Assembly: GCA_013140575.1 (NCBI GenBank)
Contig: JABFSN010000155.1
Location: 2,531-66,530, forward strand
Source: Phycisphaerales bacterium
Lineage (GTDB): Bacteria; Planctomycetota; Phycisphaerae; UBA1845
Direction of reading: 5' to 3'
DNA: 64,000 bases
In this document: positions 22,230-63,834 of the stretch, piece by piece
How positions within the stretch are numbered: position 1 is the stretch's first letter
How the letters are laid out: every line of letters starts with the position of its first letter
Made by a program: the position numbers and the translations under genes
Notes under the pieces: generated by a model
Told to the model about the DNA's origin: nothing
Databases searched by the model: none
Seen by the model: only the letters and a program-made list of their open reading frames with translations

Positions 22230-22265
22230 CACGGTGGGCGGGCATGGCCGCTGAAAGGCGCGGAC

Positions 22266-22766: not shown

Positions 22767-22811
22767 TCGACCGTTGGGCGGCGCGGCGGACGTGGAGAAA
22801 GGCGGATCGAG

Positions 22812-34097: not shown

Positions 34098-34252
34098 ACC
34101 ATTTCGTTCGACTGACGTATTCATACGGATAATGGCGGCGGGAATTGACAGGGGCGCGGCGTGGGTTGCGTCAGTGTGGAGCGGGCGTTAGTCTGCGCCG
34201 CATCGTTACACCTACAATAATGCAGTGGTGATTGAATTTCGGAGGCCATTAG

Positions 34253-35251: not shown

Positions 35252-35276
35252 CGAACAGTCGGCGGGGCGAGCGCAG

Positions 35277-35919: not shown

Positions 35920-35943
35920 GGCAGCATTCGATTTGTCATTGCC

Positions 35944-36819: not shown

Positions 36820-36861
36820 CGAGGAACAACGAGAGGAAATTCGTTAACAAGAGAAGAGATC

Positions 36862-36889
36862 CACAGATTACACAGATTTGCACAGATTA
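36862..36889 (+). repeat. Tandem CACAGATT(A/T)N repeat x3
   Basis: The sequence ccacagatta cacagatttg cacagatta was read directly. A related inverted copy is at 51985-52009. Confidence 0.6.
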
Positions 36890-36900
36890 AGAAAGAGAGA

Positions 36901-38397: not shown

Positions 38398-38402
38398 GGA
38401 AG

Positions 38403-38441
38403 GAAGGGACGAAGGGACGAAGGGACGAAGGGACGAAGGGA
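38403..38441 (+). repeat. Tandem 8-bp purine-rich repeat (GAAGGGAC) x ~4.9
   Basis: Read directly. It lies in the 76-nt spacer between the PPIase stop and the DUF4381 start. Degenerate GGGAC-rich tracts recur at 40585-40633 and 41700-41775. Confidence 0.8.
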
Positions 38442-38473
38442 GTAACCGTCCGCCGTCCGTCGCCGACCCCCGA

Positions 38474-40584: not shown

Positions 40585-40633
40585 GGGGAAGGGACAGAGG
40601 GGCAATGGGACGGAGGGACGAAGGAACCGTGGA

Positions 40634-41653: not shown

Positions 41654-42804
41654 ATAGGCACGATGGCACGAACGCACGGAGGGAGGAGTTCACCGCAGAG
41701 GCGCGGAGGGTGCGGAGGGAAGAGGGGGAAGGGGAGAAGGGTTTAAAGACTGAGAAAGGGACGAGGGGATTACTGCGAGGTTGGGTGCGAGAGGGGATTC
41801 TCGCACCAGGAGACACGACTGTGCCGGTCGCCATCGGGGATGAACAACTGGATGGGTTGTATCGATCGTATGCGGCATTCGCGGGTATTTTCAGAGCAGG
41901 GGTTGTCGCAACGGTGGTATATCTGGTCGTCTCAATGTTCCCGATTTCCGCGTATGGACAGACGGCGGCGACGCAGGGTGCCGAGGAACTGGTGCGAAGT
42001 GCCAATGCAGCGTACGCGTCCGGGGAATACCAAGAGGCCCTGCAGTTATACGGGTACGCGGATGTGGTCAAGCCGGAGTCTGCGGAGGTGGCGTACAACC
42101 GCGGAGTGACGCTGTACAAGATGGGGGACTATGTGGCCGCCCGCGGGGCGTTGAACAAAGCGTTGTCTACGCGGGATCTGGCCCTGGAGGCGAAGGCTAA
42201 ATTCAATCTGGGGAATGTGGCATATTCGTCGGCGTTAGAGAAGACGTCGGCGCCGCAGGAGGCGATCGAGCTGCTGAAACAGGCGATCGGCCACTATCGC
42301 GATTCGTTGGCCGTCAATCCGGCGGACGAAGATGCGTTGGCCAACATTCAATCGTCGCAATTGCTGATCAAAGACCTGTTGGACAAGCTGAAACAGCAGC
42401 AGGAGCAACAGCAGAATCAAGATCAGCAGCAACAAGGCGATCAGAATCAACCGCAACAGGATCCGCAACAAGACCAGTCGCAGCAGGAGCAGGAGGACCA
42501 ATCGCAACAACAGGATCAGCAGCAACAAGAGAAGGAGAAACAGCAAGGCGAGGAATCGCAGCAGGAACAACAACAAGATGGTTCGCAAGGCGAGGCGGAC
42601 CAGAAGGGCGAGCTGGACCGGCGGCAGGAACAAAGCGAGGAAGATCAACAGCAGGCGGGTGAGACGCCGTCCGACGTGCAGGAGATGACCAGGGAAGAGG
42701 CGGAGCGATTGCTGCAGTCGGTGCGGGATCGGGAGAAGGAACGGCGGGATGCGAAGGCGCAGCGAATGCGGGCGCGACGCGTGCCGGTGTCGAAGGATTG
42801 GTGA
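41644..42804 (+). CDS. batC: TPR-repeat protein BatC with a long Gln/Glu/Asp-rich C-terminal region
   Basis: TPR units are present (YASGEYQEALQLYGYA, YNRGVTLYKMGDYVAARGAL, FNLGNVAY). The first ~60 codons run through repeat sequence (hairpin at 41784-41807), so the true start is probably further downstream, before the TM segment VVATVVYLVVSMFPISAYG. Confidence 0.7.
   Translation: MAVNRHDGTNARREEFTAEARRVRREEGEGEKGLKTEKGTRGLLRGWVREGILAPGDTTVPVAIGDEQLDGLYRSYAAFAGIFRAGVVATVVYLVVSMFPISAYGQTAATQGAEELVRSANAAYASGEYQEALQLYGYADVVKPESAEVAYNRGVTLYKMGDYVAARGALNKALSTRDLALEAKAKFNLGNVAYSSALEKTSAPQEAIELLKQAIGHYRDSLAVNPADEDALANIQSSQLLIKDLLDKLKQQQEQQQNQDQQQQGDQNQPQQDPQQDQSQQEQEDQSQQQDQQQQEKEKQQGEESQQEQQQDGSQGEADQKGELDRRQEQSEEDQQQAGETPSDVQEMTREEAERLLQSVRDREKERRDAKAQRMRARRVPVSKDW
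41784..41807 (+). repeat. GGTGCGAGA-GGGGAT-TCTCGCACC hairpin repeat, copy 3
   Basis: It is a family member of 3010-3033 and 22040-22059 and lies at the batB/batC junction. Confidence 0.6.
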
Positions 42805-42935
42805 TGAAGCGAGGCGGTCGAGATTGCCCGGGATTCCTCGATCGCGGGGGACGGGTGCGCCGGGGCGAGCATCGTCGCCCCAAGCCGGGGCCGGGCCACG
42901 CCGGCGATTATCGAGCCCCCGCCCATCGCCGGGCG

Positions 42936-44750
42936 ATGGATGTGGCGCCCGGACGCGGCAGACGCATACGTGAGTCGCCCGTCATCGGGGCGATGGTCGT
43001 TGCGGCATTGTGTCTGTCGAGCGCCGCGGGGGCAGAGGTGCGGTTTTCGATTTCGGCGCGGGAAACGTATGTGGGGATGCCGGTGGTGATTCAGGTGACG
43101 ATCGAGAATCCGACGGCGCACGAGCCGCCGGTCGTCGAGGAAGCCGACGGCGTCACGGTGCGAGTGGACGCCGGCGGCACGCAGTCGATGACGAGCATTA
43201 TCAACGGACGCGTGCAGCGGTCGCAGACCATCACCTATCAATGCGTGCTGACGCCGCGGACGGCGGGGACGATCACCCTTCCGGGCGTGAAGATCAACGT
43301 CGATGGGGAGTGGCACGAGTCGGGATCGACGACGGTGGTGGTGAAGGAGTCGTACACCGGCGATCTGATGTACCTGCACCTGGTCGGCGACAACGACGGG
43401 GTATACGTGGGCGAGCCGATCGACATGACGCTGGAGGTGTGGCTGAAGCCGTACAGCGATCGCGTGGTGGACATGGACGCGGCGGGGATGTGGCGGCAGT
43501 GCGTGGACGCGGCCAATAGTTCATGGGGACCGTTCACCGAGGTGCTCGAACGGGGCGAGGTGCGCGTGCGGACGGACACGCGAAACGACGAGCAGGGGCG
43601 TCCGCAGCGGTACTTCGTGTACATGCTGCGGCAGGTGGTGTGGCCGGAGCGGCCGGGACGGTTCGACGCGTCGAACATCAGTGTGGTGGTGCAATACCCG
43701 ACGCGCGTGGAGCGCAGCCGGTTTGGGATCTTCGCACCGGAGTATCGGGTGACGAGCGCCAGGCCGATTTCGGCGGCGGTGGAGGACGCGGCCGTTCAGA
43801 TACAGGCACCCCCGTCGAAGGGTCAGCCGGAATGCTACCGGGGCGCGGTGGGCAACTACACGTTGAAGGTCTCGGCGGCGCCGACGGACGTGGCCGTGGG
43901 TGATCCGATCACGCTGACGATCAGGCTAAGCGGGGCCGGGCGAATGGAGTTGTTGCAGCCGCCGCCGATCGCGGCGCAATCGTCGTTGACCGACGGGTTT
44001 CGGGTTCCGGACGAGGCGCTGGCGGGCGTGGTGGAGCAGAACGTCAAGACCTTCACGCAGTCGATCCGACCGAAGGACGACGGCATCCGCGAGATTCCAC
44101 CGATTGAGTTCGCGTATTTCGATCCGCAGTCGGAGCGGTACGTGACGCTGCGGAGCGACCCGATTCCGATATTCGTAAAGGAGTCGGGTCGAATGGCCGT
44201 GTCGCAGGTCGTGGAGGGGTCGCCGTTGCCGAGCCACCGGACGACGCTGACGGAACTGGAGGGGATGACCACCAACTATGAAATCGTGGACGAGCTGCTG
44301 GCCCAACATCGGATCATGCCCGGCTGGCGGACGTGGTCGTTCACCGCGGCGATGCCGTTGTTGTACGGCGTCAGCGTGCTGGTAACGCGGCACCGGGAAC
44401 GGGTGCGGGGTGATACCGGTTTCGCGCGACGACGGCACGCGCGGCGGCGGGCATTGGATGGGTTGCGGTCGGTTTCGGTCGGCGGCGGCGATGCGGCGAC
44501 GGCGGTCTCGGCCGCGTTGCTGGGGTACGTAGCCGACAGGTGCAACCTGCCGCACGGCGGACTGACGCGATCGGACGCGGTAACGAGGTTGAATGATCGC
44601 GGCGTGGCGGACGATCTGGTCCGGGAGATTGACGCGGTGCTGGCGGAATGCGAGGCCGCGCGATACGCGGCGAGCGTCGGCGGCGGAGAATCGTTTTCCG
44701 CGAAGCGCGCCCGAGCGTGCATTCAGCAATTGGAAAGGTGCCGGATTTGA
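42936..44750 (+). CDS. batD: BatD-like oxygen-tolerance protein
   Basis: It has a signal peptide (MVVAALCLSSAAGAEV), repeated Ig-like segments (GMPVVIQVTIEN / GDPITLTIRLSG) and a C-terminal TM plus cytoplasmic tail, as in BatD. The start is ambiguous (42798, 42936 or 42993). Confidence 0.75.
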   Translation: MDVAPGRGRRIRESPVIGAMVVAALCLSSAAGAEVRFSISARETYVGMPVVIQVTIENPTAHEPPVVEEADGVTVRVDAGGTQSMTSIINGRVQRSQTITYQCVLTPRTAGTITLPGVKINVDGEWHESGSTTVVVKESYTGDLMYLHLVGDNDGVYVGEPIDMTLEVWLKPYSDRVVDMDAAGMWRQCVDAANSSWGPFTEVLERGEVRVRTDTRNDEQGRPQRYFVYMLRQVVWPERPGRFDASNISVVVQYPTRVERSRFGIFAPEYRVTSARPISAAVEDAAVQIQAPPSKGQPECYRGAVGNYTLKVSAAPTDVAVGDPITLTIRLSGAGRMELLQPPPIAAQSSLTDGFRVPDEALAGVVEQNVKTFTQSIRPKDDGIREIPPIEFAYFDPQSERYVTLRSDPIPIFVKESGRMAVSQVVEGSPLPSHRTTLTELEGMTTNYEIVDELLAQHRIMPGWRTWSFTAAMPLLYGVSVLVTRHRERVRGDTGFARRRHARRRALDGLRSVSVGGGDAATAVSAALLGYVADRCNLPHGGLTRSDAVTRLNDRGVADDLVREIDAVLAECEAARYAASVGGGESFSAKRARACIQQLERCRI

Positions 44751-44983
44751 TCCGCGTGGTCGGACTTGGTGCTTTACGGCGGCGTGCGACGACGCTGGTG
44801 GTCCGACACACTCGGGCATTCGGGTCGGGCATTCTGATCCGAACCCGCCACGCGAGCGGCGGGCCGCACGGAACGGATGTCGGAAATCGGATCGCACGGG
44901 AGCCGGCTCGCGTTCGGCTCCGGACTTGCGTTGGGGGTTCTGAAGTCGGCGCCGCGACTCGAATCCGCATCCGTGTCCCGGCA

Positions 44984-45165
44984 CTAAATAGAACCAAGGA
45001 GTAGGGAAACCGATTTCGTCATGCCCCACGAACACGACCCGCGAATCTTCGCCCGCAGGGCGCACGATCTTAGCCAGGGACTTCAGTCCCTGGATCGCGT
45101 GCGTCATTTCTTCCCGCCCGGAGGGCGCACGAATCCCGGTTTCCCTTTTGTGTGTTCTTATTTAG
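44984..45165 (-). repeat. MITE-like ~170-bp interspersed element, copy 3 (inverted relative to copies 1 and 2)
   Basis: Its reverse complement aligns end to end with 24680-24848 apart from an ~11-nt insertion. It lies between batD and batE. Confidence 0.75.
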
Positions 45166-45953
45166 CGGCGCTGGTGGTCATGCCGGCGTTCGTTTGTGCG
45201 CAGTCGCCGGTTTCACAAAAGGATCCGATCCGGGCGACGCTGGACGATGCCCTGCGCGCGTATCGACTGGGCGTGGACAAGCTGCGCGACGAGCCGGACG
45301 GCGCCGTGAAGGAGTTCCGCCGGACAAGGGATGGATTTCAGGCGGTCGTCGACGCCGGCGTCGAGAATGGCAAACTATACTACGACCTGGGCAACGCCCA
45401 TTTGCGCCTGGGCGAGGTGGGCAAGGCCGTCGCCCATTATCGCAAGGCGGAGCGGTTGATTCCCGGCGACGAAAACCTGGCGGCCAATCTGCGGTTCGCG
45501 CGCTCCATGCGCCGCGATCAGATCGAATCGAGCGGGAAGAAGACGTTTCTGAAGACCGTGTTCTTTCTGCATTACGATTGGACGCTACGGGTGCGGCTGA
45601 TCGTTGCGTTGGTCTGCTATGGCGGATTCTGGGGGTTGATGATCGTCCGGCGGAGTTGGCCGCGGGCGGGCGTGGGGTACGCGGCGCTGGTCGCGCTGGC
45701 GTTGTGGATCAGTTTCGGGGCGTCGGCCTGTCTGACGTGTTACGAGCGGCGGTCGCCGTCTGAGGGCGTACTGGTGACAAACGATGTCATCGTGCGCAAG
45801 GGAAACGGGGAATCGTACGATCCGCAGTTTGCGGCGCCGCTGCACGAGGGCGTGGAATTCGCGGTTCTCGAACGACGGTCAAACTGGGTGTACATCGAAT
45901 TGCCAGACGGGAGCCGCGGCTGGATTCGAGATCGGGATGCGCTCGTATTCTGA
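45150..45953 (+). CDS. batE: BatE-like TPR plus SH3b-domain membrane protein
   Basis: It has a TPR (YYDLGNAHLRLGEVGKAVAHYRKAERL), 2-3 TM helices and a C-terminal SH3b-like segment (EFAVLERRSNWVYIELPDGSRGWIRDRDALVF). The ORF track start at 45021 lies inside the repeat. The GTG at 45150 or the ATG at 45180 is more likely. Confidence 0.7.
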   Translation: MCSYLAALVVMPAFVCAQSPVSQKDPIRATLDDALRAYRLGVDKLRDEPDGAVKEFRRTRDGFQAVVDAGVENGKLYYDLGNAHLRLGEVGKAVAHYRKAERLIPGDENLAANLRFARSMRRDQIESSGKKTFLKTVFFLHYDWTLRVRLIVALVCYGGFWGLMIVRRSWPRAGVGYAALVALALWISFGASACLTCYERRSPSEGVLVTNDVIVRKGNGESYDPQFAAPLHEGVEFAVLERRSNWVYIELPDGSRGWIRDRDALVF

Positions 45954-46781: not shown

Positions 46782-47372
46782 CGGAACGCTCCATTCCGTT
46801 AAGAAGGCGTGTGCCGTCGGCCGGGGCCCGCGGCCGTCCAAACTCGTTTGACCGAAGCACACTGCGCGTCATGCTAACTCGCGGCGCGGCGTCGCACAAC
46901 GATTCGACCCCGAACCGTCGCCGACCAGGTGCATCCCGGGAACCGGGCCGGGGGCTCGCCCCTCGCGACAGCACAGGATGGGAAGCAACGATCGCCGCGG
47001 CGGGATTCCAAAAAGACCGACCGCGTCACGCCCGTCGGCTGCGGCACGTCGCGGTTCATGTCGCGGACATGAAGGCGTAGCACACGGGCCGGCCGAACGG
47101 GCATCCGGCGACCCGCGAACAATTCCAATCGCCCGATCATCGTGCCCCCAACCAGCGCCGCGCGATGGGTGGGTCATCCAGTCCATGCCACTCGCCGAAG
47201 CAGCATCGAGCTTGTTCAGGGGAGGGGATTCCCACAAATCCTGCTGCGCGTGGGGTTCTTCCAGAAGCCGTCCTTTACTCCGCGGCGGGCTGCGCCTTAG
47301 AATCGCTGCATCGTGGAGACTGGCGGGCAATGCGGCTTCCGCGACGAAATCGACTCAAAAAAGGCTCGCATC

Positions 47373-47597
47373 ATGACCCGGACGATCGACGCGGTGTATG
47401 AAGGCGGCGTGCTGCGGCCGCTCCAACTGCAGGACGGAATCGCCGAGCACGCTCGTGTGAGGCTAACCCTCGAGACCGTCGGCTCAGCGACGGGCGGCAT
47501 GGCCGACTGTGTCGGCACCCTGCCTGATGACGACGCCGCGGAGATGCGCCGGATTGTTCACGACCAATTCGAACAGGTGAACCCGGGTGAATGGTGA
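47373..47597 (+). CDS. DUF104/AF2212-like antitoxin (VapB-type partner of the PIN toxin)
   Basis: MTRTIDAVYEGGVLRPLQLQDGIAEHARVRLTLE matches the DUF104 antitoxin N-terminal pattern. It overlaps the PIN gene. Confidence 0.7.
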   Translation: MTRTIDAVYEGGVLRPLQLQDGIAEHARVRLTLETVGSATGGMADCVGTLPDDDAAEMRRIVHDQFEQVNPGEW

Positions 47598-47979
47598 CCG
47601 CATCGCCCTGGATACGACCGCGGCCATCGACGTGTTGAACAACACGGGCGAGCTGCGCGAGTGGATCGCCACCTTTACGCTGGTGAGTTTGCCGGTACCG
47701 GTCGTGGGCGAGCTTTGCTTTGGTGCGATGAATTCGCAGCGCGCCGGTAAGAACCGTAGGCGGGTGGATGCGCTGATCGCGCGGTGCAGCGTGCTGGACG
47801 CGAACCTAGTGACCGCCGAAGTCTGCGCCCGTATTCGCTTCCGGCTGAAACAGTCGGGCCGCCCGATTCCGGAGCACGACGTATGGATCGCCGCATTGTG
47901 CATTCAACACGGCTTGCCTCTCGCGACGTCGGATGAGCACTTCGTACTGGTGGAAGGGCTTGAGGTAGTGAAGCGATGA
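47587..47979 (+). CDS. vapC: PIN-domain ribonuclease toxin VapC
   Basis: IALDTTAAID (first acidic residue), VVGEL, HDVWIAA and LATSDEHF match conserved PIN acidic positions. It has a GTG start. Confidence 0.85.
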   Translation: MNGDRIALDTTAAIDVLNNTGELREWIATFTLVSLPVPVVGELCFGAMNSQRAGKNRRRVDALIARCSVLDANLVTAEVCARIRFRLKQSGRPIPEHDVWIAALCIQHGLPLATSDEHFVLVEGLEVVKR

Positions 47980-53086: not shown

Positions 53087-53423
53087 CCACCCGATCGGCG
53101 CGTGGCGGCGGGTGGCATGCTCTCGCGGTACCTCGCGCGAGCGTGCTTTTGGTAGCGGTGCGCCGCCGGAGCACGAAGCGCGATGGGGTAACACGACACA
53201 TCCAAACATTGTAAATAATGCTTGAATCGGTCGCGGTGTCTGGTAACATGGGTTCGTTGGGGTCGTCGTTTCATTCCGGAGTTTGCCGCGAACGGGAGGG
53301 GCATGCGAAGTGCGCGGTCAGTCGCGGATGAGGGACACGGGTGGAGGGGATCGGCAACCCAAACGGCGGGTCATCGATCGTCAGGCGTAATCCTTGCAAG
53401 TTGGATTCAGGGAGGGAATTCGA

Positions 53424-56400
53424 ATGGCATCGTCAGTGCGATGTATTGGGTTGGGGGCGAGGAACGGTGGTTCGCAAACGGGAATGGAACGGCGGTTGGC
53501 CTCGCGCTCGCACCGCGGTGTGGCGCCCGCGTCTCTCTCTCGACGAAGCGTACGCGGGAGATTCACGGCCTTCGTGGGTTTCGGCGTGCTGATCGCCGGG
53601 CACGCGGCCATCGGGCAGCCGGTGCGTTACGTGGACAAGGACGCCGAGGGGGCGAACAACGGCTCGAACTGGGCGAATGCGTACACCAACCTGCAAAGCG
53701 CCTTGACGCCAGCCGTGGTGACCACGCACGTTTGGGTCGCGGACGGAACCTATCGACCGGGGCTGGCGGTGCCGCGGACGGTCACCTTTCAGTTGCAGAA
53801 CAACCTGGAAGTGTACGGTGGATTCGACGGAACGGAGACGATGCTCTCCGAACGAAGCCCGGAAACGAACGTCACCATCCTGTCCGGCGACCTGAACAGC
53901 AACGACTCGTACGTTGGTCGCTGCACGGCCGATTCGCCGGATTGCGATTCGTTCGGCAAACTGTGCGACGAGGGCTTCTGCATCATCGCCAGCAACAACG
54001 CCGAGAATGTCTACCACGTGGTCACGGGCAGCGGGACGAACGCGACGGCCGTGCTTGACGGGTTCACGATCACGAGTGGGAATGCGAATGTTTGTTGTGA
54101 CCCCAGCACTACTTCTGGCGCGGGGATGGTCAACGACGCGGGCAGTCCCACGGTCATCAATTGTACGTTCGCCGGGAATTCGGCATCCTTCGGCGCGGGT
54201 ATGTTTAATGACACGGGCAGCAATCCCGTGGTGAAGGGATGCCGATTCCGGGGCAATTCCGCGACCTCGGGCGGCGGAATGCTCAACGAGACCACCAGCA
54301 GTCCGAAGGTGAGCAATTGCTATTTCATTGCGAACCACGCGATCATCGGCGGCGGAATGAAAAACACAGCGAACTCCGACCCCACGGTGACAAACTGCCA
54401 ATTCCTCGGCAACAAGACGGGAATCACGGGCGGTGGCGGCGGAATGGATAACGATTTGAGCAGCCCGACGGTGACCAATTGCGGCTTCAGCGGCAATTCG
54501 GCCCTCAATGGCGGCGGGATGGGCAACTACAATTTCAGCAACCCGTTAGTCACCAACTGCACGTTCAGCGGCAATTCGGCCGGTATCGCTGGCGGCGGAA
54601 TGAACAACACCTTTAGTAGCAATCCGACGGTGACCAACAGCATTCTGTGGGGGAACAGTGATGGGGGCGGGATGGACGAATCCGCGCAGATTCACACCGA
54701 CAGCGGCACGCCGGTGGTCAACTACAGCACCGTCCAGGGCGGATGGACCGGCGCGGGCGGAACGGGAAACGGTTCGGCCGATCCGGGATTCTTCGATGCC
54801 GACGGACTGGACAACGTCGCCGGCACGACCGACGACGACCTGCGCTTGCAGCCCGGTTCCCAGGCGATCGACGCCAGCAACAATGCGGCCGTCCCCGCCG
54901 ACGACGCCGACCTGGATAACGACCTGAACACCAACGAGCCGGTCCCGTACGACCTGCGTAACAACGCGCGGTTCCGCGATGCCTGGAACGTGCCCAACAG
55001 CGGCTCCGGCTCCATCCCGATCGTGGACATGGGGGCGTACGAAAGCGTGGGAACGGTGGTGCTGGTGGACGCGACGCCCACGGGCTGGGCCGGCTCGACC
55101 GCGCTGACCACCGATTTGCAGTCCGCGCTGACGTTCGCGCAGTCCTACTTCGACGAAATCACCGAAATCTGGGTCGCGGCCGGAACGTACACACCCGGCG
55201 CGGATCGGAGCGATACGTTCCAACTGCTCAACGGCGTGGGCATCTATGGCGGGTTTGCGGGCAACGAGACATCGCTCTTCCAGCGGGACGTGGACGAAAA
55301 CGTCACAATTTTGAGCGGCGACCTGACCGACGACGACACACCCGTGGCGTGTACGGCGAATTCACCGGATTGCGACTCGTTCGGCGGGCTGTGCCTGAAC
55401 GGGCACTGCATCATCGCCGACAACAACGACGAGAACAGCTACCACGTGGTGACAGGAAGTGGCACGAACGCGACGGGCATCCTTGACGGATTCACCATCA
55501 CGGCGGGCAATGCCAACGGCGGTCCCTTTGTGGATTGGGGCGGTGGCGGCGTCTCAATCGTTGGGGGAAGTCCAACTGTAACCAACTGTACGATTGTCGG
55601 GAATTCGGCGATCGCACGCGGCGGGGCGATGCACAATCATATCAATAGTTCCCCCAGTGTGACCAACTGTACGTTTGTTGGAAACTCATCATCAAACTTT
55701 GCGGGAGGGATTTTCAATAACAGCAACAGCAGCCCAACGGTGGTTAACTGTATATTCGCCGGGAATTCAGCGGGTCTCGACGGCGGGGGGATGCTGAACA
55801 ACTTCAGCAGTAACGCCGTGCTAACCAATTGCGTCTTCAGCGGGAATATCTGCAACCGCTTTGGCGCGGCGTTGAACAATTCAAACTCTAGCGATCCAAT
55901 CGTGGTCAATTGCGTGTTCAGCAGAAACACGTCGATGCAGAATGGAGGCGGAATGTACAACTTCGCCAGCCCAATGGTGTCCAATTGCATTCTGTGGGGC
56001 AACGTTGATTCGGGCGGAACGGACGAATCTGCTCAAATCGACACACAAGTCGGCACGCCGACCGTCAATTACAGCATCGTGCAGGGCGGGTGGACGGGCG
56101 CGGGCGGAACGGGGAACAGCGCGGCCGATCCATTGTTTTTTGATGCCGACGGCGTGGACGGAATCGTCGGCACGGCGGACGACGATCTGCGGCCGATCGG
56201 CGGGTCGCCGGCGATTGACGCGGGGGACAATTTCGCCGTTCCGGCGGACTTCGCCGATTTGAACGATGACTTCGATTTCGCGGAACGGACGCCGATCGAT
56301 CTGGCCGGCAAGCTGCGGTTTGTCGACGACCTGGGCACGTCGGACACGGGTGTGGACGATCCGCCGAACTATCCGTACGTGGTGGACATGGGGGCGTACG

Positions 56401-58022
56401 AATACTTCCCCGACTGCAACCATAACGGAGTTGCCGACGACATCGACATCATGTTGGCGACCAGCCTGGACGTGAACGGCGACGACATTCCCGACGAGTG
56501 CGCCCAATGGAACCCGCCGCTGGTGAACGACGGATTGTGGGGGACGGCCGGCAACTGGGCGCCGCCGGTGGTGCCGGACAATGTCATGGACGACGTGTTT
56601 GACGTGACCATCAGCGGGTCCGTGGAAGTCGTGACGTTGAACATCAACGCGGATGTCAATTCGCTGAAGCTGCTCGACGATGCGACGTTGAACGTGACGC
56701 TGGGCGATTTGAACGTGCTGACCGCGGCCGGCATCATCGTGGACGGAACGCTGAACGTCACCGGGACGCACACGCTGGATTCGGCCGGTCCGGTGGTGGT
56801 CGATGATTCGCCCGATGTGTTCGCATTGGGCGGCTGCGTTCCGCCGCCGACGGTGTCGCTGCGCGGGTCGGGGAGCCACACGATGACGTCGTTGACCGTA
56901 CAGGAATGCGCCCAGGTGCTCGCGGGCGACAGCGTCACGACGCTGGTGTCGGGTCCGGTGTTGATCGGACCGGGGGGGTTCTACGGTCCCGATCCGGATC
57001 GCCTCGACCCGTCGGCCGCCGAGTTGACATGTAACGGGTTGGGCATCACCGGAAACGAATTCGCGGCCGGTGTGTTTGAATTGGACGACACCATGATGTT
57101 GACGGTGAACGGCGACGTGAACCTGATCGCCGGCGGGCCGTTTCCGTCGTCGCCATCGGCGCGGCTGTTGGGCGGATGTGTGCCGCCGCCGACGTTGCGG
57201 GCGCGGGGGTTCGCGACGTTGATCATTGCCGGCAGCCTGAATGTTTCCGAATGCGCGGAAGTGTCGTTCGGACCGAACGTGACGTTCGGCCTGTTGTCGC
57301 CGGGTGATCCGGCGGCGCCTGAAACGGCGGCGCTCCCGACGGCGGGGCCGGAACCGTTGCCATCGGTGGCGTTGCGCGGGAACATGGTGAACGCGCAGAC
57401 CGAGCCGTCGCGGTTCAACTGGCGGTTCGGCGAACTGGTTTTGTCGGCGGGTCCATCGCATCAGATCGAGGCGGCCGGCGAAGACCGCGGCGCCGCGCCG
57501 GACGGGTTCACCAACAACTACGCCATCGGGCGGATGGAATTGGCGGCGACGTCGGCCACGACGGTCGTCGACCAGAATCTCAACGGATCGGCGTCAGCCG
57601 ACGCGCTGTACGTGGGCGAGCTGGTTCTGCAATCGGGGTCGACGCTGACGCTGCTTGCGAAATTGTACGCCGGGCGGGTGATCAACAACGGCGGGATGAT
57701 TCTGACGCCGGGTCTGTTGGACACGGTCGATTGTGTCACGGATGCGCAGTGCGACGATGGGATCGTATGCACGACCGACGACTGCAGCGGCGGCGGTTGC
57801 GCGTACGCGTTCGCGTTGTTCGGCGACGTGAATGCAGATGGCGGCGTGGATATTTTCGATATTCTGTGCGTGCTGGACGGATTCGCCGGGGTGTTTACGA
57901 CATGTTCGCAGCCGAGCGTGGACTTGGCCCCGTGTCCGGCCGGCGACGAGATGATCGACATATTTGACATATTGGCCGTTCTGGATGCGTTCGCGGGCAG
58001 TAACGGCTGTTGCAGCCCGTGA
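53424..58022 (+). CDS. Giant secreted protein: two tandem choice-of-anchor-Q/PbH1-like parallel beta-helix modules, a third repeat region, and a Cys-rich plus dockerin-like C-terminus
   Basis: The signal-like N-terminus is RFTAFVGFGVLIAGHAAIG. Duplicated ~477-aa modules carry YGGF.G.E..L..R......VTILSGDL...DSPDCDSFG.LC..G.CII..NN.EN.YHVVTGSGTNAT..LDGFTIT.GNA followed by (GGGM.N....P.V.NC.F.GN.A)n. The C-terminus is CVTDAQCDDGIVCTTDDCSGGGC...GDVNADGGVDIFDILCVLDGFAG...DIFDILAVLDAFAGSNGCCSP. The start could be 53394, 53424 or 53484. Confidence 0.85.
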   Translation: MASSVRCIGLGARNGGSQTGMERRLASRSHRGVAPASLSRRSVRGRFTAFVGFGVLIAGHAAIGQPVRYVDKDAEGANNGSNWANAYTNLQSALTPAVVTTHVWVADGTYRPGLAVPRTVTFQLQNNLEVYGGFDGTETMLSERSPETNVTILSGDLNSNDSYVGRCTADSPDCDSFGKLCDEGFCIIASNNAENVYHVVTGSGTNATAVLDGFTITSGNANVCCDPSTTSGAGMVNDAGSPTVINCTFAGNSASFGAGMFNDTGSNPVVKGCRFRGNSATSGGGMLNETTSSPKVSNCYFIANHAIIGGGMKNTANSDPTVTNCQFLGNKTGITGGGGGMDNDLSSPTVTNCGFSGNSALNGGGMGNYNFSNPLVTNCTFSGNSAGIAGGGMNNTFSSNPTVTNSILWGNSDGGGMDESAQIHTDSGTPVVNYSTVQGGWTGAGGTGNGSADPGFFDADGLDNVAGTTDDDLRLQPGSQAIDASNNAAVPADDADLDNDLNTNEPVPYDLRNNARFRDAWNVPNSGSGSIPIVDMGAYESVGTVVLVDATPTGWAGSTALTTDLQSALTFAQSYFDEITEIWVAAGTYTPGADRSDTFQLLNGVGIYGGFAGNETSLFQRDVDENVTILSGDLTDDDTPVACTANSPDCDSFGGLCLNGHCIIADNNDENSYHVVTGSGTNATGILDGFTITAGNANGGPFVDWGGGGVSIVGGSPTVTNCTIVGNSAIARGGAMHNHINSSPSVTNCTFVGNSSSNFAGGIFNNSNSSPTVVNCIFAGNSAGLDGGGMLNNFSSNAVLTNCVFSGNICNRFGAALNNSNSSDPIVVNCVFSRNTSMQNGGGMYNFASPMVSNCILWGNVDSGGTDESAQIDTQVGTPTVNYSIVQGGWTGAGGTGNSAADPLFFDADGVDGIVGTADDDLRPIGGSPAIDAGDNFAVPADFADLNDDFDFAERTPIDLAGKLRFVDDLGTSDTGVDDPPNYPYVVDMGAYEYFPDCNHNGVADDIDIMLATSLDVNGDDIPDECAQWNPPLVNDGLWGTAGNWAPPVVPDNVMDDVFDVTISGSVEVVTLNINADVNSLKLLDDATLNVTLGDLNVLTAAGIIVDGTLNVTGTHTLDSAGPVVVDDSPDVFALGGCVPPPTVSLRGSGSHTMTSLTVQECAQVLAGDSVTTLVSGPVLIGPGGFYGPDPDRLDPSAAELTCNGLGITGNEFAAGVFELDDTMMLTVNGDVNLIAGGPFPSSPSARLLGGCVPPPTLRARGFATLIIAGSLNVSECAEVSFGPNVTFGLLSPGDPAAPETAALPTAGPEPLPSVALRGNMVNAQTEPSRFNWRFGELVLSAGPSHQIEAAGEDRGAAPDGFTNNYAIGRMELAATSATTVVDQNLNGSASADALYVGELVLQSGSTLTLLAKLYAGRVINNGGMILTPGLLDTVDCVTDAQCDDGIVCTTDDCSGGGCAYAFALFGDVNADGGVDIFDILCVLDGFAGVFTTCSQPSVDLAPCPAGDEMIDIFDILAVLDAFAGSNGCCSP

Positions 58023-58230
58023 CGCGCCGTGTGGCAATCCCTGACGGGGAACCATAGCCGGGGAGCTGTTGCCACGAGCGGCCCGCCGATAATGAGATGA
58101 GCCTCGGGGTTGGAGGGGTTTCGTGTATGGCGCTTTCGTCTGGAATCGGACCGTCGGCACGCCTAGAATGGCGTAGCGGCGGATCGGTTGCCGTCCGTGC
58201 GTGTCGGGCATTCCACGTTCGAGGGGATTC

Positions 58231-59613
58231 ATGTTGCGCGGGTCAATCTTCACGGGCGTCGCGATGTCGGTCATGGCAGTGCTGCGGCCGGTGCATGCGC
58301 AGAACGCATCATTGACGCTGGAACCGAACGGGACCTGCGTGGACCCCGGCCAACAGTTGGTGGTGACGGTTTCGATGACGTTGGCGCCGATTGACGTTTG
58401 CGTGGGGCAGTTTTTTCTGGCGTACGACGCGGACGCGCTGGATTTCGTCGGCATGGTTCCCGCGCCGGGGACGCCGTTCACGCTGCCGTTCGGTCCGACG
58501 GTGAACGAATCGTCGGGGACCATTGATTACGCATTCGCGCCGCCGTTCGGGAGTTGCAACGGGGCGACACCGGGACCGGCCGACATCGCGTTGATCACGT
58601 TTGACGTGATTGGTCCGTGCAGTGCGGCGGTGCGATTCCGGGACAGCGATCCGCCGGCCAAGCTGGCGAGCAGCGTGCCGCAAACGATATTCCCCGAATT
58701 GGTCGACCTTTCGTACGTGCGTGTGGACGACGGCGAGTTGTCGGCGATGGTGTGCCCGGCGAACATCATGGTGAACTTGGAAATCGGTCGGCCGGGAGCG
58801 GTAGCGTCGTGGTCCGATCCGGCGGACGGATGCGGAGTCGTTCCGCCGGGGGCGGTTTGCGATCCGCCGAGTGGTTCGATATTCCCGGTGGGAACTACCA
58901 GCGTCGGGTGCCACGTCGACGGGCCGTGCGGCGAGGCGTCGTGCATGTTCGACGTGGAGGTCGTGCCGCCGGCGGGGCCGCCGTACATCGTTCACGGACT
59001 GGGTCGCGAAGGTGAAACGCGACCGTTCACGGGTTACGTCGACCCGCGATCTGAAAGCTCGAACGGCGTCGATTGGAACATGGGGATCGACGAAATCGAG
59101 CTGCTGTTCAGCGAGCCGGTTCGGGCGCTGGGCGGCGGGCCGTGGGACGTCACGTCGTTCATGGTGCACACGACCGGCGGTCGGGCACCGACGATCGTCG
59201 AGGTGGATTCGTCGGCCAATCCGCTTGTCGTCATCCGATTTGACCCGGATACGCCGCCGCCGTTGCAGGAATGGACGACGGTGGTGGCGCAGGTCGAGGA
59301 TCTGACCGGCGATCCGATGGTGGCCGGGGCGAATATGGGCCCGGGTGTCGGGGAACCCGATCGCGTGGATTTCGCATTTCTGCCGGGAAATGTCGATGGC
59401 AACGGGCAGGTTCAACCTGTCGACTTGATTCGATTTCGCCAGTTGTACGCGGGCGCGGTTCCGGCAATGGGCGTGGTTGCGGACTACGTGGATATGAACC
59501 GGGGCGGCACGGTGGCACCGACGGACCTGATTCGGATGCGGCAGTTGTTGGCCGGGACCGCGCCGGCGACTCGGGTCTGGCTGGTTGTGTCGATGAACCA
59601 CTCCCAGCCGTAG
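58231..59613 (+). CDS. Secreted cohesin-like / HYR / dockerin three-module protein
   Basis: It has a signal peptide (VAMSVMAVLRPVHAQ). The cohesin-like segment is LVVTVSMTLAPIDVCVGQFFLAYDADALDFVGMVP...GTIDYAF...ADIALITFDVIG. The HYR-like segment is CPANIMVNLEIGRPGAVASWSDP...PSGSIFPVGTTSVGCHV....GEASCMFDVEV. The dockerin segments are GNVDGNGQVQPVDLIRFRQL and VDMNRGGTVAPTDLIRMRQLLAG. Confidence 0.78.
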   Translation: MLRGSIFTGVAMSVMAVLRPVHAQNASLTLEPNGTCVDPGQQLVVTVSMTLAPIDVCVGQFFLAYDADALDFVGMVPAPGTPFTLPFGPTVNESSGTIDYAFAPPFGSCNGATPGPADIALITFDVIGPCSAAVRFRDSDPPAKLASSVPQTIFPELVDLSYVRVDDGELSAMVCPANIMVNLEIGRPGAVASWSDPADGCGVVPPGAVCDPPSGSIFPVGTTSVGCHVDGPCGEASCMFDVEVVPPAGPPYIVHGLGREGETRPFTGYVDPRSESSNGVDWNMGIDEIELLFSEPVRALGGGPWDVTSFMVHTTGGRAPTIVEVDSSANPLVVIRFDPDTPPPLQEWTTVVAQVEDLTGDPMVAGANMGPGVGEPDRVDFAFLPGNVDGNGQVQPVDLIRFRQLYAGAVPAMGVVADYVDMNRGGTVAPTDLIRMRQLLAGTAPATRVWLVVSMNHSQP

Positions 59614-59739
59614 GTTCGTTGACCGATTGTGGCGTCCGATATTGAGCGGCGCTTGAAAAGTGTCTGTGTCCGTGATACCATGCGTCAACTGACGAGACGA
59701 GACTGACCATTAAACTTGAAACGCGGTGACCTGGTACCC

Positions 59740-59937
59740 ATGAAGCAGTTCCGACGAGTCGCGGCGCGATTCCTGAAATCCGAAGACGGGCCCAGCGCCG
59801 TCGAGTATGGCGTGCTGTTGGCGCTGCTCGTGGTGATTGCGCTGTCGGCGATATCACTGCTGGGCGAGAAGGCGGGCGAGGTTTTCAACGGCGTTTCCGA
59901 CGACTTGTCGGAAGCGAAGCAGGCCGCGGGTTCCTGA
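59740..59937 (+). CDS. flp: Flp/Fap-family type IVb (Tad) pilin
   Basis: MKQFRRVAARFLKSEDG/PSAVEYGVLLALLVVIALSAI has the G/xxxxEY prepilin processing motif followed by a hydrophobic helix. It is 65 aa long. Confidence 0.85.
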   Translation: MKQFRRVAARFLKSEDGPSAVEYGVLLALLVVIALSAISLLGEKAGEVFNGVSDDLSEAKQAAGS

Positions 59938-59954
59938 ACCGATTCTGGTTCAGG
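59933..59954. terminator. Candidate bidirectional hairpin between convergent genes (cctgaacc-gattct-ggttcagg)
   Basis: An 8-bp perfect stem spans both stop codons (flp TGA at 59935-59937 and the minus-strand stop at 59950-59952). No U-tract is present, so terminator function is uncertain. Confidence 0.3.
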
Positions 59955-62900
59955 CGATTCGCCGGCGGCGGGATTGCCCTTTCCACGCGGTCCACCCACC
60001 GATCATCAACATCATGGGGATGAAACCGATCAGCCCGCAGATGCGCGGCGGCGTGGGGTCGTCGTCGTCGTCATCATCGGAATCGTCGGGCGGCGGCACG
60101 GCCGGTCCGCGGCCGACGGCGAAATCAGATAGCGAATCGCGCACCACCCAAACGCACCCGGCGTCGCGATCGACGCCGAAATCGCCGACCGCATCGGTGG
60201 GCACGGCGTCGCCGCGGTTTTGGTCGGCGTCGCCGGCCAAGACCCATCGACCGGAAGTTTCGTCGAACACGTAGACGGCGAGCGGTGCGTGGGTCAAATC
60301 GGCGTCGGCCAGCAGCTCGTCGGTGTAGCACATCTGAACAACGGCGGTGAACTCGCCGAACAGGTTTTCGTCGACGCGGGCGGTGAAGGGCAGCGCGTCA
60401 CCATCGAGAATGCCGTCAAAATCGTCACGCAGGTTGCCGTCCGCGAGCATTAGGACGATCGAACCGGACGTTGCGTTGTCGATGCCGAGCATCGCCCCGG
60501 CGCCGGTGACGTCGGACGCGACGGACGCGTCGGCCTGTCCGTCGGAATCAATCGTGGCGGAATCGGTGTAGGTGGCGGGGGGTTCGTCGTCACCGTTGTC
60601 GTTCCCGTTTCCGTTTTGGTTGCCGTTCTGATTGCCGTTGTCGTTGTCATTGTCGTTGCCGTTGTCACCGTCGTCGTTGTCGTTGCCGTTGCCGTTGTCG
60701 TCGTCGTCGTCATCAACCGGCGCGGGGGTGAACCAGTTGATGTTGTTGCCGGCGTCGGTGACGCCGTCGAGGCCGAGTTCGTCGAGGGCGGAACCGCCGT
60801 CGTCGCTGGTGTATTCGCTTCGCGAAAGTGTGACGTTGGCGATGGTGACGCTGTCCGACGATCCGCGATCGAGCCGGAACGCGTCGGTGGCGTTGACGGC
60901 GGACATGATGACGGGCGAGTCGGGCGATTGGCCGTCGATGTTGAGCACGGCATCGCCGTCGAGGGTGATAACGGCACCGGGGCGGAAGCGCAGCGTCGAG
61001 AATGGGATGAAGTCGATGAACGAGCCGGAATCGTTGATGGCGATGTCGCCGAATTGGTACTTGAACGCCCCCGCCAGGGAGTAGTCGCCGTTGTCGCCGT
61101 CGATGTTGACCTGACCGAGCAGCTTGAAATCGTCATCGGCGGCGGCGCTGAAGGTTTCGGCTCCGCCGGACGAACGCAGATTGACGGTCGAACCGGAAAC
61201 GGCGTCGATATTGACGTTGGAGCCGGCCGCACCCGCGGTGATGCTTCCGAAGGTGGTCAGCGTGGCGTCGTCCGCGACGATGATTTCGTCGCCGTCGTCA
61301 TTGAACGTGATGTCGTGGTTGGCGGAGTCGGACCCGATGACGAGTTCGCCGGCGTCGATGTCGAGTCTGACGCCGGTCGCGCCGGCGAACAGCGCCGTGG
61401 CCCCGCCGGTCAACGTCACCGTTCCGGACTCGAGTTTATTGACGATTGCGTTGGCGCCGAGCGTGCTGTTCGCGGTCGTGGTGACGGTTGTCGTGCCCGT
61501 CCCGCCGAGCCGAAACGATTCACCGGCGGGCAGGGTCAGCCGGAGATCGCCGACCGTCACATCGCCGTCGCCGTCGAGGCGGCCGGTAGTGGCATCGACT
61601 CGGGAAACGGCGCCATCGCCGAGGAGCGTCAGTTCGCGGTTCAGGATGGCGACCGTCGCCGTCAGCGTTTTTCCGTCTGCGACGTCGATGGCGGCGTTGG
61701 CGGTCATTGTGACGGCAGTCGGAGTGACGGATTCGTCGACTTGCAGCACGGCGCCCGCGGCGTCGAGCATGATGGTGCCGGGGTTGCCGGATTCGGTCAG
61801 CGTCAGGCGGTTATCCTTGACACCGATCGCGCCGGTCAGAATCCTGCCGGCGGCGACTTCCAACGTCAGATCGCCCGAACCGGTCAACAGGGTGACGTCG
61901 GGCAGCGTGCAGTTCTGATCGACGTCGATGACGGCGCCGTTGGCGTTGACGTTGACGTCGGCGACCGATGCGAGCGAGCCGGTCATGTTCAATTCGGCGA
62001 GGGCGCCGTTCAGATTGATGGTGGTGAAAGCGCCGCCGCCGGAGCAGGTGAGGACGGCGCCGGCCGCGACGTTGACGACCGACTGATAGGTTGGAGCGCC
62101 GACGATGTTGATGGACGATGAAGCGGACACGGTCGTGGTAGCGACGGTCGTGCTGGCGTTCACGACCACCTCGCCGCCGGACGTGTCCAGAATGACGTTG
62201 GTGATGTGCCCGTTGGCTTCGGAAATCACCAGTGCGTTGCTGTTCACGTCGAAACCATTGACCGACGTGATTGTTTGACCGCCATTCTGGACGGTCAGAT
62301 CGCCGGCCGCGCTGGTCATGGTGCAGCGGGGGATCGTACACGCGACGTCAACGTCGAGAATACCGCCGTTGGCGGTGACATTTAGCGTGCCGATGATGCC
62401 CGGAGTTGTGGTCGTGTTCAGCTCGGCATTGGTTCCATTCAATGCGACGGTGGAAACCGTGCCGGCGCCAATGGAAGTCAAGATCATTGCGGCGGCGACG
62501 GTGGCCGTGGTGGTCAGCGATTCGGTTGCGGCAACGTCCAGGGTGGTGTTGGCGTTGGCGGCAAGGGCGGTGATGGTGGACGATTCGTTAATGTCCAGCG
62601 TGGTTCCGGCGATGGTGTTGGTCAGTGTCGAAACCGTTCCGGCCGCCGAGACGAGAACGGTGCCGGCGGCGGTAGCGGTGTTCAGCGTGGAAAGCGTGCC
62701 CGTGTTATTGAGGGTCAGTGTTTTGGCGGCGTTAAGGGTGGCCGTGCCGCCGAGCGTTTTTCCGGAGGCGACATCAATCGTTGCGTTCTGGGAGACGGTC
62801 AGGGCGGTGATGGTGGCGTTTTCGTCGACGTCGAGTTTGCCGGTGGTGAGGTCGGCGCCGGCGATATCCACTTTCGAAACGACCAGGGCGTGGGCGGTGT

Positions 62901-63834
62901 CGCCGGAGATTTTCAGTTGAGAGGTGGCGCTGTTCAGTGTGAATCCGCCGGTGGCGGTGATGGTTTCGGCGCTGGTTCCGGTGGTGCCGGACAGGGTCAG
63001 CGTCAGGGCACCGATGGGGACGGCGTCGGTGAGGGTCAGGGCGGCGCCACTGTTGAGATTGATGGTCGCCGATCCGCCCAGGTTCAGGTCCGTGATGAGC
63101 GCGGTGCCGGTGACGTTCAGGCGCGCCGAGGAGCTGTTGAGGGTGAAGCCGGCGGTGGCGTTGATCTGCGACGTGGTCGCGGCGCCGATCAGGTTCAAGG
63201 TGTCGGCGCCGAGACTGGCGGCGGCGTTTAGCTTCAACGTCGTGGCGGCGGCCAAATCAATGGTGAAGTCGCCGGTGGGCGTCAACGTGGACAGGATGCA
63301 GTCGAAATCGCAATCGAGCGTGGCCACGCCGCCGTCAAAACCGATGTCCAGTGTGCCGATGCGGGCGGAGGCGCTGGTGAATCGGACGGTGTTGTTTCCG
63401 AGGGTCCAATGATTGGCATTGTCCGCGTCGTCGATGGCGGTATTGATCTCGACGATTTCGCCGGAGACGCTGGCGGGAACGAGGAAACCGGCCGTCCGGG
63501 CGCCGGCGCCGGCGCCGGTGGCGCGGAGTTCGCCCGCGCCCGATTGAATCACGACGTTGCCGGCGCTGTTGCCGAGCACGACCTTGCGATCGGCGGCGCC
63601 GAAACTGATGGTGGCCGTGAAGCCGCCGGCGTTGATGCCGGCGACGGTGAACGCCGTGGTGGCGTCAACGGTGACGGTGTGATTGCCGGTCCAGATGAGC
63701 ACGGTGTCGTTGGCCGTCACCAACGTCGAGATGTTGGCGTCGGCCGTCACCAGTTTGTCGACGGCGGCAGCGGGCGTCAATGTCAATGCGACGACGATTC
63801 CGATGGCGAACAGGATCGTATGGCGAGGGTTCAT
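59950..63834 (-). CDS. Giant secreted Thr/Ala/Gly/Asn-rich beta-solenoid-like protein with an Asp/Asn/Gly low-complexity stalk and a C-terminal TM-plus-basic anchor
   Basis: It has a signal peptide (MNPRHTILFAIGIVVALTLTPAAA). Hundreds of residues are imperfect repeats (for example GTVSTLTNTIAGTTLDINESSTITALAANANTTLDV), reminiscent of autotransporter-associated beta-strand repeats. It also has a DDDDDDNGNGNDNDDGDNGNDNDNDNGNQNGNQNGNGNDNGDDE tract. The C-terminus is DDSDDDDDDDPTPPRICGLIGFIPMMLMIGGWTAWKGQSRRRRIA. Confidence 0.85.
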   Translation of the reverse strand: MNPRHTILFAIGIVVALTLTPAAAVDKLVTADANISTLVTANDTVLIWTGNHTVTVDATTAFTVAGINAGGFTATISFGAADRKVVLGNSAGNVVIQSGAGELRATGAGAGARTAGFLVPASVSGEIVEINTAIDDADNANHWTLGNNTVRFTSASARIGTLDIGFDGGVATLDCDFDCILSTLTPTGDFTIDLAAATTLKLNAAASLGADTLNLIGAATTSQINATAGFTLNSSSARLNVTGTALITDLNLGGSATINLNSGAALTLTDAVPIGALTLTLSGTTGTSAETITATGGFTLNSATSQLKISGDTAHALVVSKVDIAGADLTTGKLDVDENATITALTVSQNATIDVASGKTLGGTATLNAAKTLTLNNTGTLSTLNTATAAGTVLVSAAGTVSTLTNTIAGTTLDINESSTITALAANANTTLDVAATESLTTTATVAAAMILTSIGAGTVSTVALNGTNAELNTTTTPGIIGTLNVTANGGILDVDVACTIPRCTMTSAAGDLTVQNGGQTITSVNGFDVNSNALVISEANGHITNVILDTSGGEVVVNASTTVATTTVSASSSINIVGAPTYQSVVNVAAGAVLTCSGGGAFTTINLNGALAELNMTGSLASVADVNVNANGAVIDVDQNCTLPDVTLLTGSGDLTLEVAAGRILTGAIGVKDNRLTLTESGNPGTIMLDAAGAVLQVDESVTPTAVTMTANAAIDVADGKTLTATVAILNRELTLLGDGAVSRVDATTGRLDGDGDVTVGDLRLTLPAGESFRLGGTGTTTVTTTANSTLGANAIVNKLESGTVTLTGGATALFAGATGVRLDIDAGELVIGSDSANHDITFNDDGDEIIVADDATLTTFGSITAGAAGSNVNIDAVSGSTVNLRSSGGAETFSAAADDDFKLLGQVNIDGDNGDYSLAGAFKYQFGDIAINDSGSFIDFIPFSTLRFRPGAVITLDGDAVLNIDGQSPDSPVIMSAVNATDAFRLDRGSSDSVTIANVTLSRSEYTSDDGGSALDELGLDGVTDAGNNINWFTPAPVDDDDDDNGNGNDNDDGDNGNDNDNDNGNQNGNQNGNGNDNGDDEPPATYTDSATIDSDGQADASVASDVTGAGAMLGIDNATSGSIVLMLADGNLRDDFDGILDGDALPFTARVDENLFGEFTAVVQMCYTDELLADADLTHAPLAVYVFDETSGRWVLAGDADQNRGDAVPTDAVGDFGVDRDAGCVWVVRDSLSDFAVGRGPAVPPPDDSDDDDDDDPTPPRICGLIGFIPMMLMIGGWTAWKGQSRRRRIA

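Follow-up and report, generated by a model that had tools for sequence, protein, structure and literature searches.

A candidate cohesin-dockerin pair and a conserved pilin-giant protein pair side by side in a Phycisphaerales genome

Four adjacent genes, here called A, B, C and D, lie between positions 53394 and 63834 of a 64,000-nucleotide stretch of DNA from a Phycisphaerales bacterium (assembly GCA_013140575.1, contig JABFSN010000155.1, positions 2,531 to 66,530 of the forward strand). The whole of this stretch was analyzed and is called the window below. Gene A (53394-58022, plus strand) encodes an exported protein of 1542 amino acids. Gene B (58201-59613, plus strand) encodes a protein of 470 residues consisting of a signal peptide, a cohesin, an HYR module and a conserved C-terminal module. 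Gene C (59716-59937, plus strand) encodes a Flp-type prepilin of 73 residues, and gene D (59950-63834, minus strand) an exported, repetitive protein of 1294 residues. C and D are convergent and their stop codons are 12 nucleotides apart. The G+C content of the window is 62-66%. All four genes are coding frames, with a G+C content at third codon positions (GC3) of 0.78-0.83 (0.79 in A). A, B and D start with Sec-type signal peptides, as read directly from the sequence. The true start of A is probably an internal methionine, and that of C is probably the ATG at 59740. A preliminary description of the window had reported four neighboring genes with these modules. They are real, as the open reading frames and the coding-type GC3 confirm.

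The cohesin of B comprises residues 45-140 (58333-58620, plus strand), and the HYR module residues 182-254 (58744-58962, plus strand). In a Pfam scan of the whole protein, all matches fell short of their cut-offs, given here in brackets: Cohesin 23.2 (24.1), HYR, PF02494, 20.2 (21.7) and Dockerin_1 15.6 bits (22.9). The isolated cohesin domain, scored against PF00963, reaches 25.8 bits and passes. The homolog search with B found only two full-length relatives, P0001 with 64% identity and P0002 with 43%, and their cohesins score 33.1 and 25.9 bits, respectively. All three members of the B family are therefore above the Pfam cut-off for this domain, B itself when the domain is isolated. A profile of the three sequences gave weak matches in the Protein Data Bank (PDB), the five best of which are all cohesins. 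A low-confidence AlphaFold2 model of B, in which the cohesin domain has a pLDDT of about 45-69, was used as a query in Foldseek and returned almost exclusively cohesins, with a probability of 1.0 and TM scores of 0.43-0.56. P0002 has a precomputed Pfam HYR match. The succession of cohesin, HYR and dockerin read in the preliminary description holds, the isolated cohesin being above its cut-off and the relatives and profiles backing the other two modules. The HYR module probably binds a ligand or a surface.

The two full-length relatives were found with the complete sequence of B, and a search with its N-terminal 262 residues alone gave no match. A metagenome scan with an alignment of the cohesin-HYR region recovered no relative. 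When a profile of this region from the three orthologs was compared with a representative library, more than 15,000 proteins matched, including 6,621 with E <= 1e-10. Among the 150 matches listed, all except P0002 align at profile positions of about 167-250, each in many tandem copies, and one that was scanned, P0109, has nine Pfam HYR domains. The search was thus swamped by giant proteins with HYR repeats and carries no information on how cohesins are distributed.

The C-terminal module of B is about 215 residues long (residues 259-470; 58975-59610, plus strand). It is built of a β-rich, Ig-like domain, called X here, two dockerin segments (59389-59547) and an end of the form ...PATRxW....N..QP-COOH. 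Its alignment has 25 invariant positions, and the X domain has a pLDDT of 73-84 in the model of B. The dockerin segments, GNVDGNGQVQPVDLIRFRQL and VDMNRGGTVAPTDLIRMRQL, represent a duplicated Ca2+-binding loop followed by a helix, with positions that are invariant in the alignment (A1). The homologous dockerin of a member in genome Dive96_bin4.107 (locus L014) scores 27.8 bits, above the cut-off of Dockerin_1 (PF00404), and precomputed matches to this family exist for P0001, P0003-P0006 and others. No Pfam or NCBIfam model matches the X domain or the end of the module.

About 17 proteins found in the homolog search with B match it in the C-terminal half only. In these Phycisphaerales proteins the module closes S8 peptidases, a GH16 enzyme, glucose/sorbosone dehydrogenases, a CHRD protein and a cytochrome c protein. 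It stands at the extreme C-terminus in every relative of B that was aligned or recovered, with QP or RP as the last dipeptide. A second metagenome scan yielded only nine short contigs with the C-terminal module, and further copies were thus seen in marine-sediment and other metagenomes. One of the genes whose product ends in this module sits amid housekeeping genes. Because the module also ends many unrelated proteins, B shares its tag with numerous others, and the cohesin-HYR head is what sets it apart from them. Since it closes such varied enzymes, the module probably serves all of them as a tag for docking or sorting. It was recorded on P0003-P0019 and at loci L025-L034.

In the protein encoded by A, two modules with 'NCxFxGNSA..GGGM' repeats stand in tandem and are followed by a Cys-rich middle region and, at the C-terminus, by a dockerin-like tail of the GC type. 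The first module comprises residues 98-550 approximately (53685-55043, plus strand) and the second residues 573-1003 (55110-56402, plus strand). They are 53% identical to each other (E 9e-123). The modules are β-helix-like, a reading that comes from the pattern of the repeats. Their sole NCBIfam match is choice_anch_Q (NF041518), with 21.9 bits under a cut-off of 25, and a sequence search of the PDB with A found no relative. The tail (57813-58004, plus strand) has two segments of the form DIFDIL..VLD.FAG and ends with ..GCCSP. It matches the NCBIfam model dockerin_GC (NF041540) weakly, with 13.9 bits under a cut-off of 29. A custom hidden Markov model (HMM) of GC-type tails, built in this analysis, gives it 98.7 bits. 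A profile of two homologous tails, from loci L002 and L014, matches solved dockerins, namely 5lxv_B (E 0.0024) as well as 2b59_B, 1daq, 2y3n and 2mte. By these profile matches, the GC-type tail is related to dockerins. Of what the preliminary description said about A, the two modules, β-helix-like by their repeat pattern, and the Cys-rich part are present, and the dockerin-like tail stands with a score below the NCBIfam cut-off.

The region of A around residues 1030-1065 (window positions of about 56480-56590) contains a motif, DCNxNGxxDxxDIxxxTSLDxNxDxIPDEC, which is also present in a di-heme oxidoreductase protein of 700 residues at locus L014. The two copies are 59% identical over 34 residues. 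The motif directly precedes the Cys-rich and GC-dockerin regions.

The surroundings of B-family genes provide some clues to the partner of the B cohesin. The contig of P0001 (locus L001) repeats the order of the window: a GC-dockerin gene, B, the Flp gene and a convergent D. Between the two genomes the GC-type tail is 90%, B 64% and D 75% identical. At the locus of P0002 (L002) the B ortholog is adjoined by a different protein of 328 residues, encoded divergently, which also has a GC-type dockerin at its end. At L014 an ortholog of D is followed by an ortholog of this L002 protein, a protein of 476 residues with the X-dockerin module and the di-heme oxidoreductase. The latter contains a type-2 module as well as an internal module of the GC type. 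The gene with the C-terminal module of B is thus flanked by two genes for GC-type dockerin proteins, beside a D ortholog. The synteny check therefore found the A-B-C-D order again in a relative, L001, and GC-dockerin genes again beside B-family genes. These genes adjoin B-family genes in two independent arrangements, while the third arrangement involves a C-module gene only. This is a new point.

Custom HMMs were run over 414 kb of sequence, comprising the window and all the loci. GC-type tails were found on six proteins, and the genes of five of them are at most two genes away from one of the B family or one with the C-terminal module. The recurrent adjacency suggests that the B cohesin binds dockerins of the GC type. 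A literature search returned no publication that deals with GC-type dockerins or describes a cohesin partner for this class.

The proteins neighboring the B-family or C-module gene at L002 (826-1812, minus strand) and L014 (9868-10974, plus strand) represent a conserved protein of about 330-370 residues, 43% identical between the two genomes, with a β-rich N-terminal region and the GC-type tail. The N-terminal domains of the neighbor proteins at L002 and L014 were also considered as candidate cohesins, which found no support.

Gene D is of a different character. An internally repeated region, with units of about 150 residues, extends over residues 180-740 approximately (61615-63297, minus strand). 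Comparison of residues 440-590 with residues 590-740 by hhalign gave a probability of 100% and an E of 1.7e-38. The repeats surface only in such profile-profile comparison, and BLASTP of D against itself showed none. Residues 1041-1087 (60574-60714, minus strand) form an acidic stalk, in which the fractions of Asp, Asn and Gly are 0.34, 0.34 and 0.19. The stalk leads to a conserved β-sandwich at residues 1088-1246 (60097-60573, minus strand), which AlphaFold2 modeled from 11 orthologs with a pLDDT of 95.8. Foldseek found no neighbor for this domain in the PDB at E <= 1e-3. The best matches were MYDGF and ZU5, with TM scores of 0.55 at most, and the lowest E was 0.017. The domain was considered as a hidden cohesin and rejected, since hhalign gave a probability of 0.4% against the B cohesin and there was no cohesin among the Foldseek matches. 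The same β-sandwich is also seen in paralogs of 1,800-2,000 residues (P0038-P0040, L018-L023).

The C-terminal tail of D, residues 1263-1294 (59953-60048, minus strand), resembles an anchor or a sorting signal. It consists of P-x-[ILMV]-C-G-[LI]-x-G, about 20 hydrophobic residues and a basic end, and the Cys-Gly pair is invariant across the D orthologs (L001-L017). Three D tails had no match at E <= 10 among the NCBIfam sorting-signal models, and D as a whole has no match in Pfam or NCBIfam, by either of which it contains neither a cohesin nor a dockerin. The tail may be a simple membrane anchor. Of the features of D listed in the preliminary description, the convergent orientation, the length of 1294 residues, the acidic stalk and an anchor-like C-terminal segment are present. 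D also has a signal peptide, and its C-terminal transmembrane segment is followed by a basic tail. About 15 full-length orthologs, 45-75% identical, are known in Phycisphaerae (alignment A3), and they come only from metagenome-assembled genomes labeled Phycisphaerae, Phycisphaeraceae or Planctomycetota, which assigns the source of the window to the class Phycisphaerae.

The product of gene C has the processing site SEDG/PSAVEYGVLLALLVV (SEDG/PSAVEY) followed by a hydrophobic helix, and its match to Pfam Flp_Fap (PF04964) is 23 bits (E 6.7e-5), under the cut-off of 32.2. The assignment as a Flp-type pilin can be retained on the motif and the helix. A sigma-70-like promoter match is found upstream of C at 59653-59681. 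The Pfam scan of the rest of the window covered the larger predicted genes, among which there were no tad or cpa genes; within this scope the pilin is alone, as had been proposed.

In five genomes a Flp-like gene of 63-73 residues is convergent with D and lies 12-140 nucleotides downstream of it, and in all five the motif G/P[ST][AT]VEY is kept. They are the genome of the window, that of L001, OFTM258, SCS3bin.42 (also in GCA_044345325) and OFTM285. Beside the window, the pair is found at the loci labeled L001, L003/L015, L007/L008/L017 and L010. All the neighbors other than Flp differ among the five genomes, and OFTM258, SCS3bin.42 and OFTM285 have D with Flp but without A or B. In OFTM371, D has no Flp, A or B, and REP-like repeats take the place of the pilin gene. 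That D and Flp stay together amid changing flanks points to a functional link. Their products might, for instance, form a surface fiber that is associated with a pilus or co-regulated. No paper describing the pairing was found in a literature search. The repeated element of OFTM371 is present in two or three copies downstream of D (L005/L006/L011, about 13840-14480), all of which translate to '...GPWLQPWG...' or '...TVGHPTGAPGRQRSGDHDHHSTC'.

Taken together, these data can be explained by two units lying side by side, a reading to which we give an even chance: A and B would be a cohesin-dockerin pair like that of the planctosome proposed for other Phycisphaerae (PMC6461901), and C and D a separate conserved pair. 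What the data show is how the genes are built, which domains they encode, how well these are conserved and in what order the genes lie; the binding partners, the location at the surface and the function would be as follows. The C-terminal X-dockerin module would dock B, like the enzymes that share the module, onto a cohesin-bearing anchor encoded elsewhere. The B cohesin would capture proteins with a GC-type dockerin at their end, the adjoining A being the foremost of them. As an adaptor, B would then recruit GC-dockerin cargo to a cell-surface assembly in a Ca2+-dependent manner, with its HYR module contributing the binding of a ligand or a surface. D would be held independently by its Cys-Gly, transmembrane and basic tail, acting either as a type I membrane anchor or as an uncurated sorting signal.

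A number of points weigh against this reading. Only three B-family sequences are known. The AlphaFold2 model of full-length B, made from 12 sequences, has a pLDDT of 49.7 and is a rough fold query only. The tail of B scores 15.6-17.3 bits against Dockerin_1 (PF00404), for which the cut-off is 22.9, and the B dockerin, the GC-type tail and the choice_anch_Q match are all under curated cut-offs in the window. The loci were chosen via B or D, so that the count of adjacent GC-dockerin genes is biased; it is suggestive and has no statistic attached. Another GC-type tail in the window, at 1-123, lies 53 kb from B. The protein of 476 residues that carries the C-terminal module at L014 has no recognizable cohesin in its N-terminal domain, and no cohesin-bearing anchor protein for the module was found in the window.

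The C-terminal modules might instead be export or sorting tags, read by a secretion machinery as are the C-terminal domains of the type IX secretion system or PEP-CTERM, in which case the B cohesin would have some other ligand. Their placement suits such a role: the X-dockerin module forms the very end of its proteins and closes with a conserved QP or RP, its flanks are nearly invariant, its cargo is unrelated and the cargo genes are scattered amid housekeeping genes. The NCBIfam name of the GC type, 'dockerin domain-anchored', points the same way. However, both kinds of tail keep the duplicated Ca2+-loop-plus-helix and match Dockerin_1 or solved dockerins, the GC-type module of the L014 oxidoreductase is internal, and a cohesin gene lies next door. 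We regard the sorting-tag explanation as improbable. It is likewise unlikely that A, B, C and D are adjacent by chance and without physical interaction, in genomes rich in exported modular proteins. Against chance stand the three different settings in which GC-dockerin genes adjoin a B-family or C-module gene, and the recurrence of D with Flp amid changing flanks. In its favor, three kinds of dockerin-like module are common in these genomes, the A-B and B-C gaps measure 100-180 nucleotides and C has a promoter-like site of its own. A single scaffold of all four gene products, with D as the membrane base, B bridging D to A and the pilin in the same structure, is very unlikely, for although A-D are adjacent in two genomes (the window and L001) and the D ortholog of L014 stands beside dockerin-bearing genes, D has neither a cohesin nor a dockerin, its only globular domain is a confidently modeled β-sandwich that is not a cohesin, and the more distant genomes OFTM258, SCS3bin.42 and OFTM285 have D with Flp and not A or B, and OFTM371 has D with none of them. 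The role of D as a base, which the preliminary description had raised, is consequently without support, because D has no docking module and the synteny with A and B is confined to close relatives.

The two-unit reading can be carried further. B-family cohesins could be the cognate receptors for GC-type dockerins, which are orphans so far, and the 215-residue module a lineage-wide tag by which dozens of enzymes and adaptors are loaded onto the cell surface of Phycisphaerae, so that the two would form a two-tier, non-cellulosomal display in a Gram-negative phylum. Independently of this, D-Flp could be a new anchored fiber system with a new Cys-Gly signal and a new β-sandwich. The conjunction of all this is possible, and we put it forward tentatively.

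Two additional dockerin-like tails had been noted in the window, and both are present. The tail at 1-123 (plus strand) is a second tail of the GC type, on a gene cut by the edge of the window, and its score with the NCBIfam dockerin_GC model is 19.4 bits, under the cut-off of 29. The other (26767-26937, plus strand), which has two cysteines, is a module of the EF-hand-pair or dockerin-like kind at the C-terminus of a protein of 344 residues (25906-26940). Alone, it matches no model. Of four modules with which it aligns, two match Dockerin_1 (best E 1.2e-6). Its pattern is DxDGDxDLxDF...C...C..DxDxDxDVDxxDF. Similar two-Cys modules were seen at L003 (about 16500-16700), L007 (about 12700-12900) and L014 (12974-15076). 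At L003 and L007 they are internal, just before Ig repeats, in large exported proteins of 956 and 833 residues, respectively, that are encoded adjacent to Flp; the L007 protein also has weak matches to the trypsin family. The window thus contains three dockerin subtypes and one identified cohesin, and it is plausible, as had been proposed, that the subtypes differ in their partners.

The scanned larger genes elsewhere in the window are of the housekeeping kind, such as mrdA/rodA, lnt, moeA, pdxJ and dapA. They also include genes for the lipopolysaccharide (LPS) core, an alcohol dehydrogenase gene, an NfeD-NfeD-FloA (flotillin) operon (20323-23867) and a long plus-strand operon (about 34250-45953) with BatD and a TPR/SH3 protein at its end, which resembles Bat/aerotolerance operons. 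GC skew is strongly positive between 28 and 44 kb. At 47301-47979, a small AF2212-like protein and the PIN-domain protein encoded after it look like a VapBC-like toxin-antitoxin pair. A plasmid origin found no support, as a tblastn search with B against the plasmid database PLSDB gave no match.

Few known protein-protein interactions are as tight as those of cohesin-dockerin pairs, which are used as orthogonal connectors in synthetic biology. To our knowledge, their roles outside Firmicutes are essentially untested. Phycisphaerae are abundant degraders in water and sediment. The recurrent adjacency of GC-type dockerins and B-family cohesins adds a testable cognate pair. If the B cohesin does bind the GC-type dockerin, the planctosome concept would gain a concrete pair encoded side by side, and a new specificity class of cohesin-dockerin recognition would be defined. 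The family of 215-residue X-dockerin tags is a second addition, and could serve as a handle for counting the surface-displayed secreted enzymes of Phycisphaerae. The D-Flp pair, with its uncurated Cys-Gly tail and unmatched β-sandwich, is a separate and smaller lead on surface anchoring in Planctomycetota.

Several known systems resemble parts of the locus. The tail of D is tripartite, with a Cys-Gly motif, a hydrophobic helix and a basic end, like the PEP-CTERM/exosortase, MYXO-CTERM and GlyGly-CTERM signals. It differs from these curated signals in that no model matches it and no sortase-like gene was seen nearby. In its length, its G/xxxxEY processing motif and its hydrophobic helix, C resembles the Flp/Tad type IVb pilins. 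Unlike these, it is paired with a giant repetitive protein, and the scanned genes of the window include no tad or cpa. Among NCBIfam models, the best weak matches are NF041540 for the tail of A and the tail at 1-123, and NF041518 for the modules of A, all of them below cut-off.

B shares more with the adaptor scaffoldins of clostridial and ruminococcal cellulosomes. These also have a cohesin and a dockerin in one protein, with an X module directly before the dockerin, and the cohesin fold, as predicted for B, the duplicated Ca2+-binding segment of the Dockerin_1 type and the adaptor logic are common to both. The present locus, in contrast, has a single cohesin, contains no CBM, SLH or sortase anchor modules and no cluster of carbohydrate-active enzymes (CAZymes), and belongs to a Gram-negative planctomycete.

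The closest counterpart is the planctosome, which was described in silico for Nemodlikiaceae, freshwater Phycisphaerae (Andrei et al. 2019, ISME J; PMC6461901). Its anchor, of 2,210 residues, combines an LTD, P-domains and TSP3 repeats with a cohesin; its adaptor has a signal peptide, a dockerin, an HYR and a cohesin; and its cargo consists of dockerin-bearing M12B and M14 peptidases (PMC6461901). For Cloacimonadota, too, a complex of a similar kind has been put forward in silico (PMC8542988). The preliminary description knew of no named system with such an arrangement, and this has to be corrected: the architecture of B is not new, because its domain set, by which alone the two were compared, is exactly that of the planctosome adaptor (PMC6461901). 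The window genes that were scanned include no anchor of the planctosome type (LTD, P-domains, TSP3 and cohesin), and the window has no dockerin-bearing M12B or M14 peptidases; S8 peptidases are found among the relatives that carry the C-terminal module. Both systems come from the same bacterial class, have no link to cellulose, count dockerin-tagged hydrolases, including peptidases, as their presumed cargo and were described purely in silico. The locus is real and was read correctly at the level of domains; it is a variant of an assembly of this proposed kind. It differs from the planctosome in that the gene adjoining the adaptor encodes a β-helix-like giant with a GC-type dockerin, and in that the dockerin of the adaptor is embedded in a conserved module of 215 residues.

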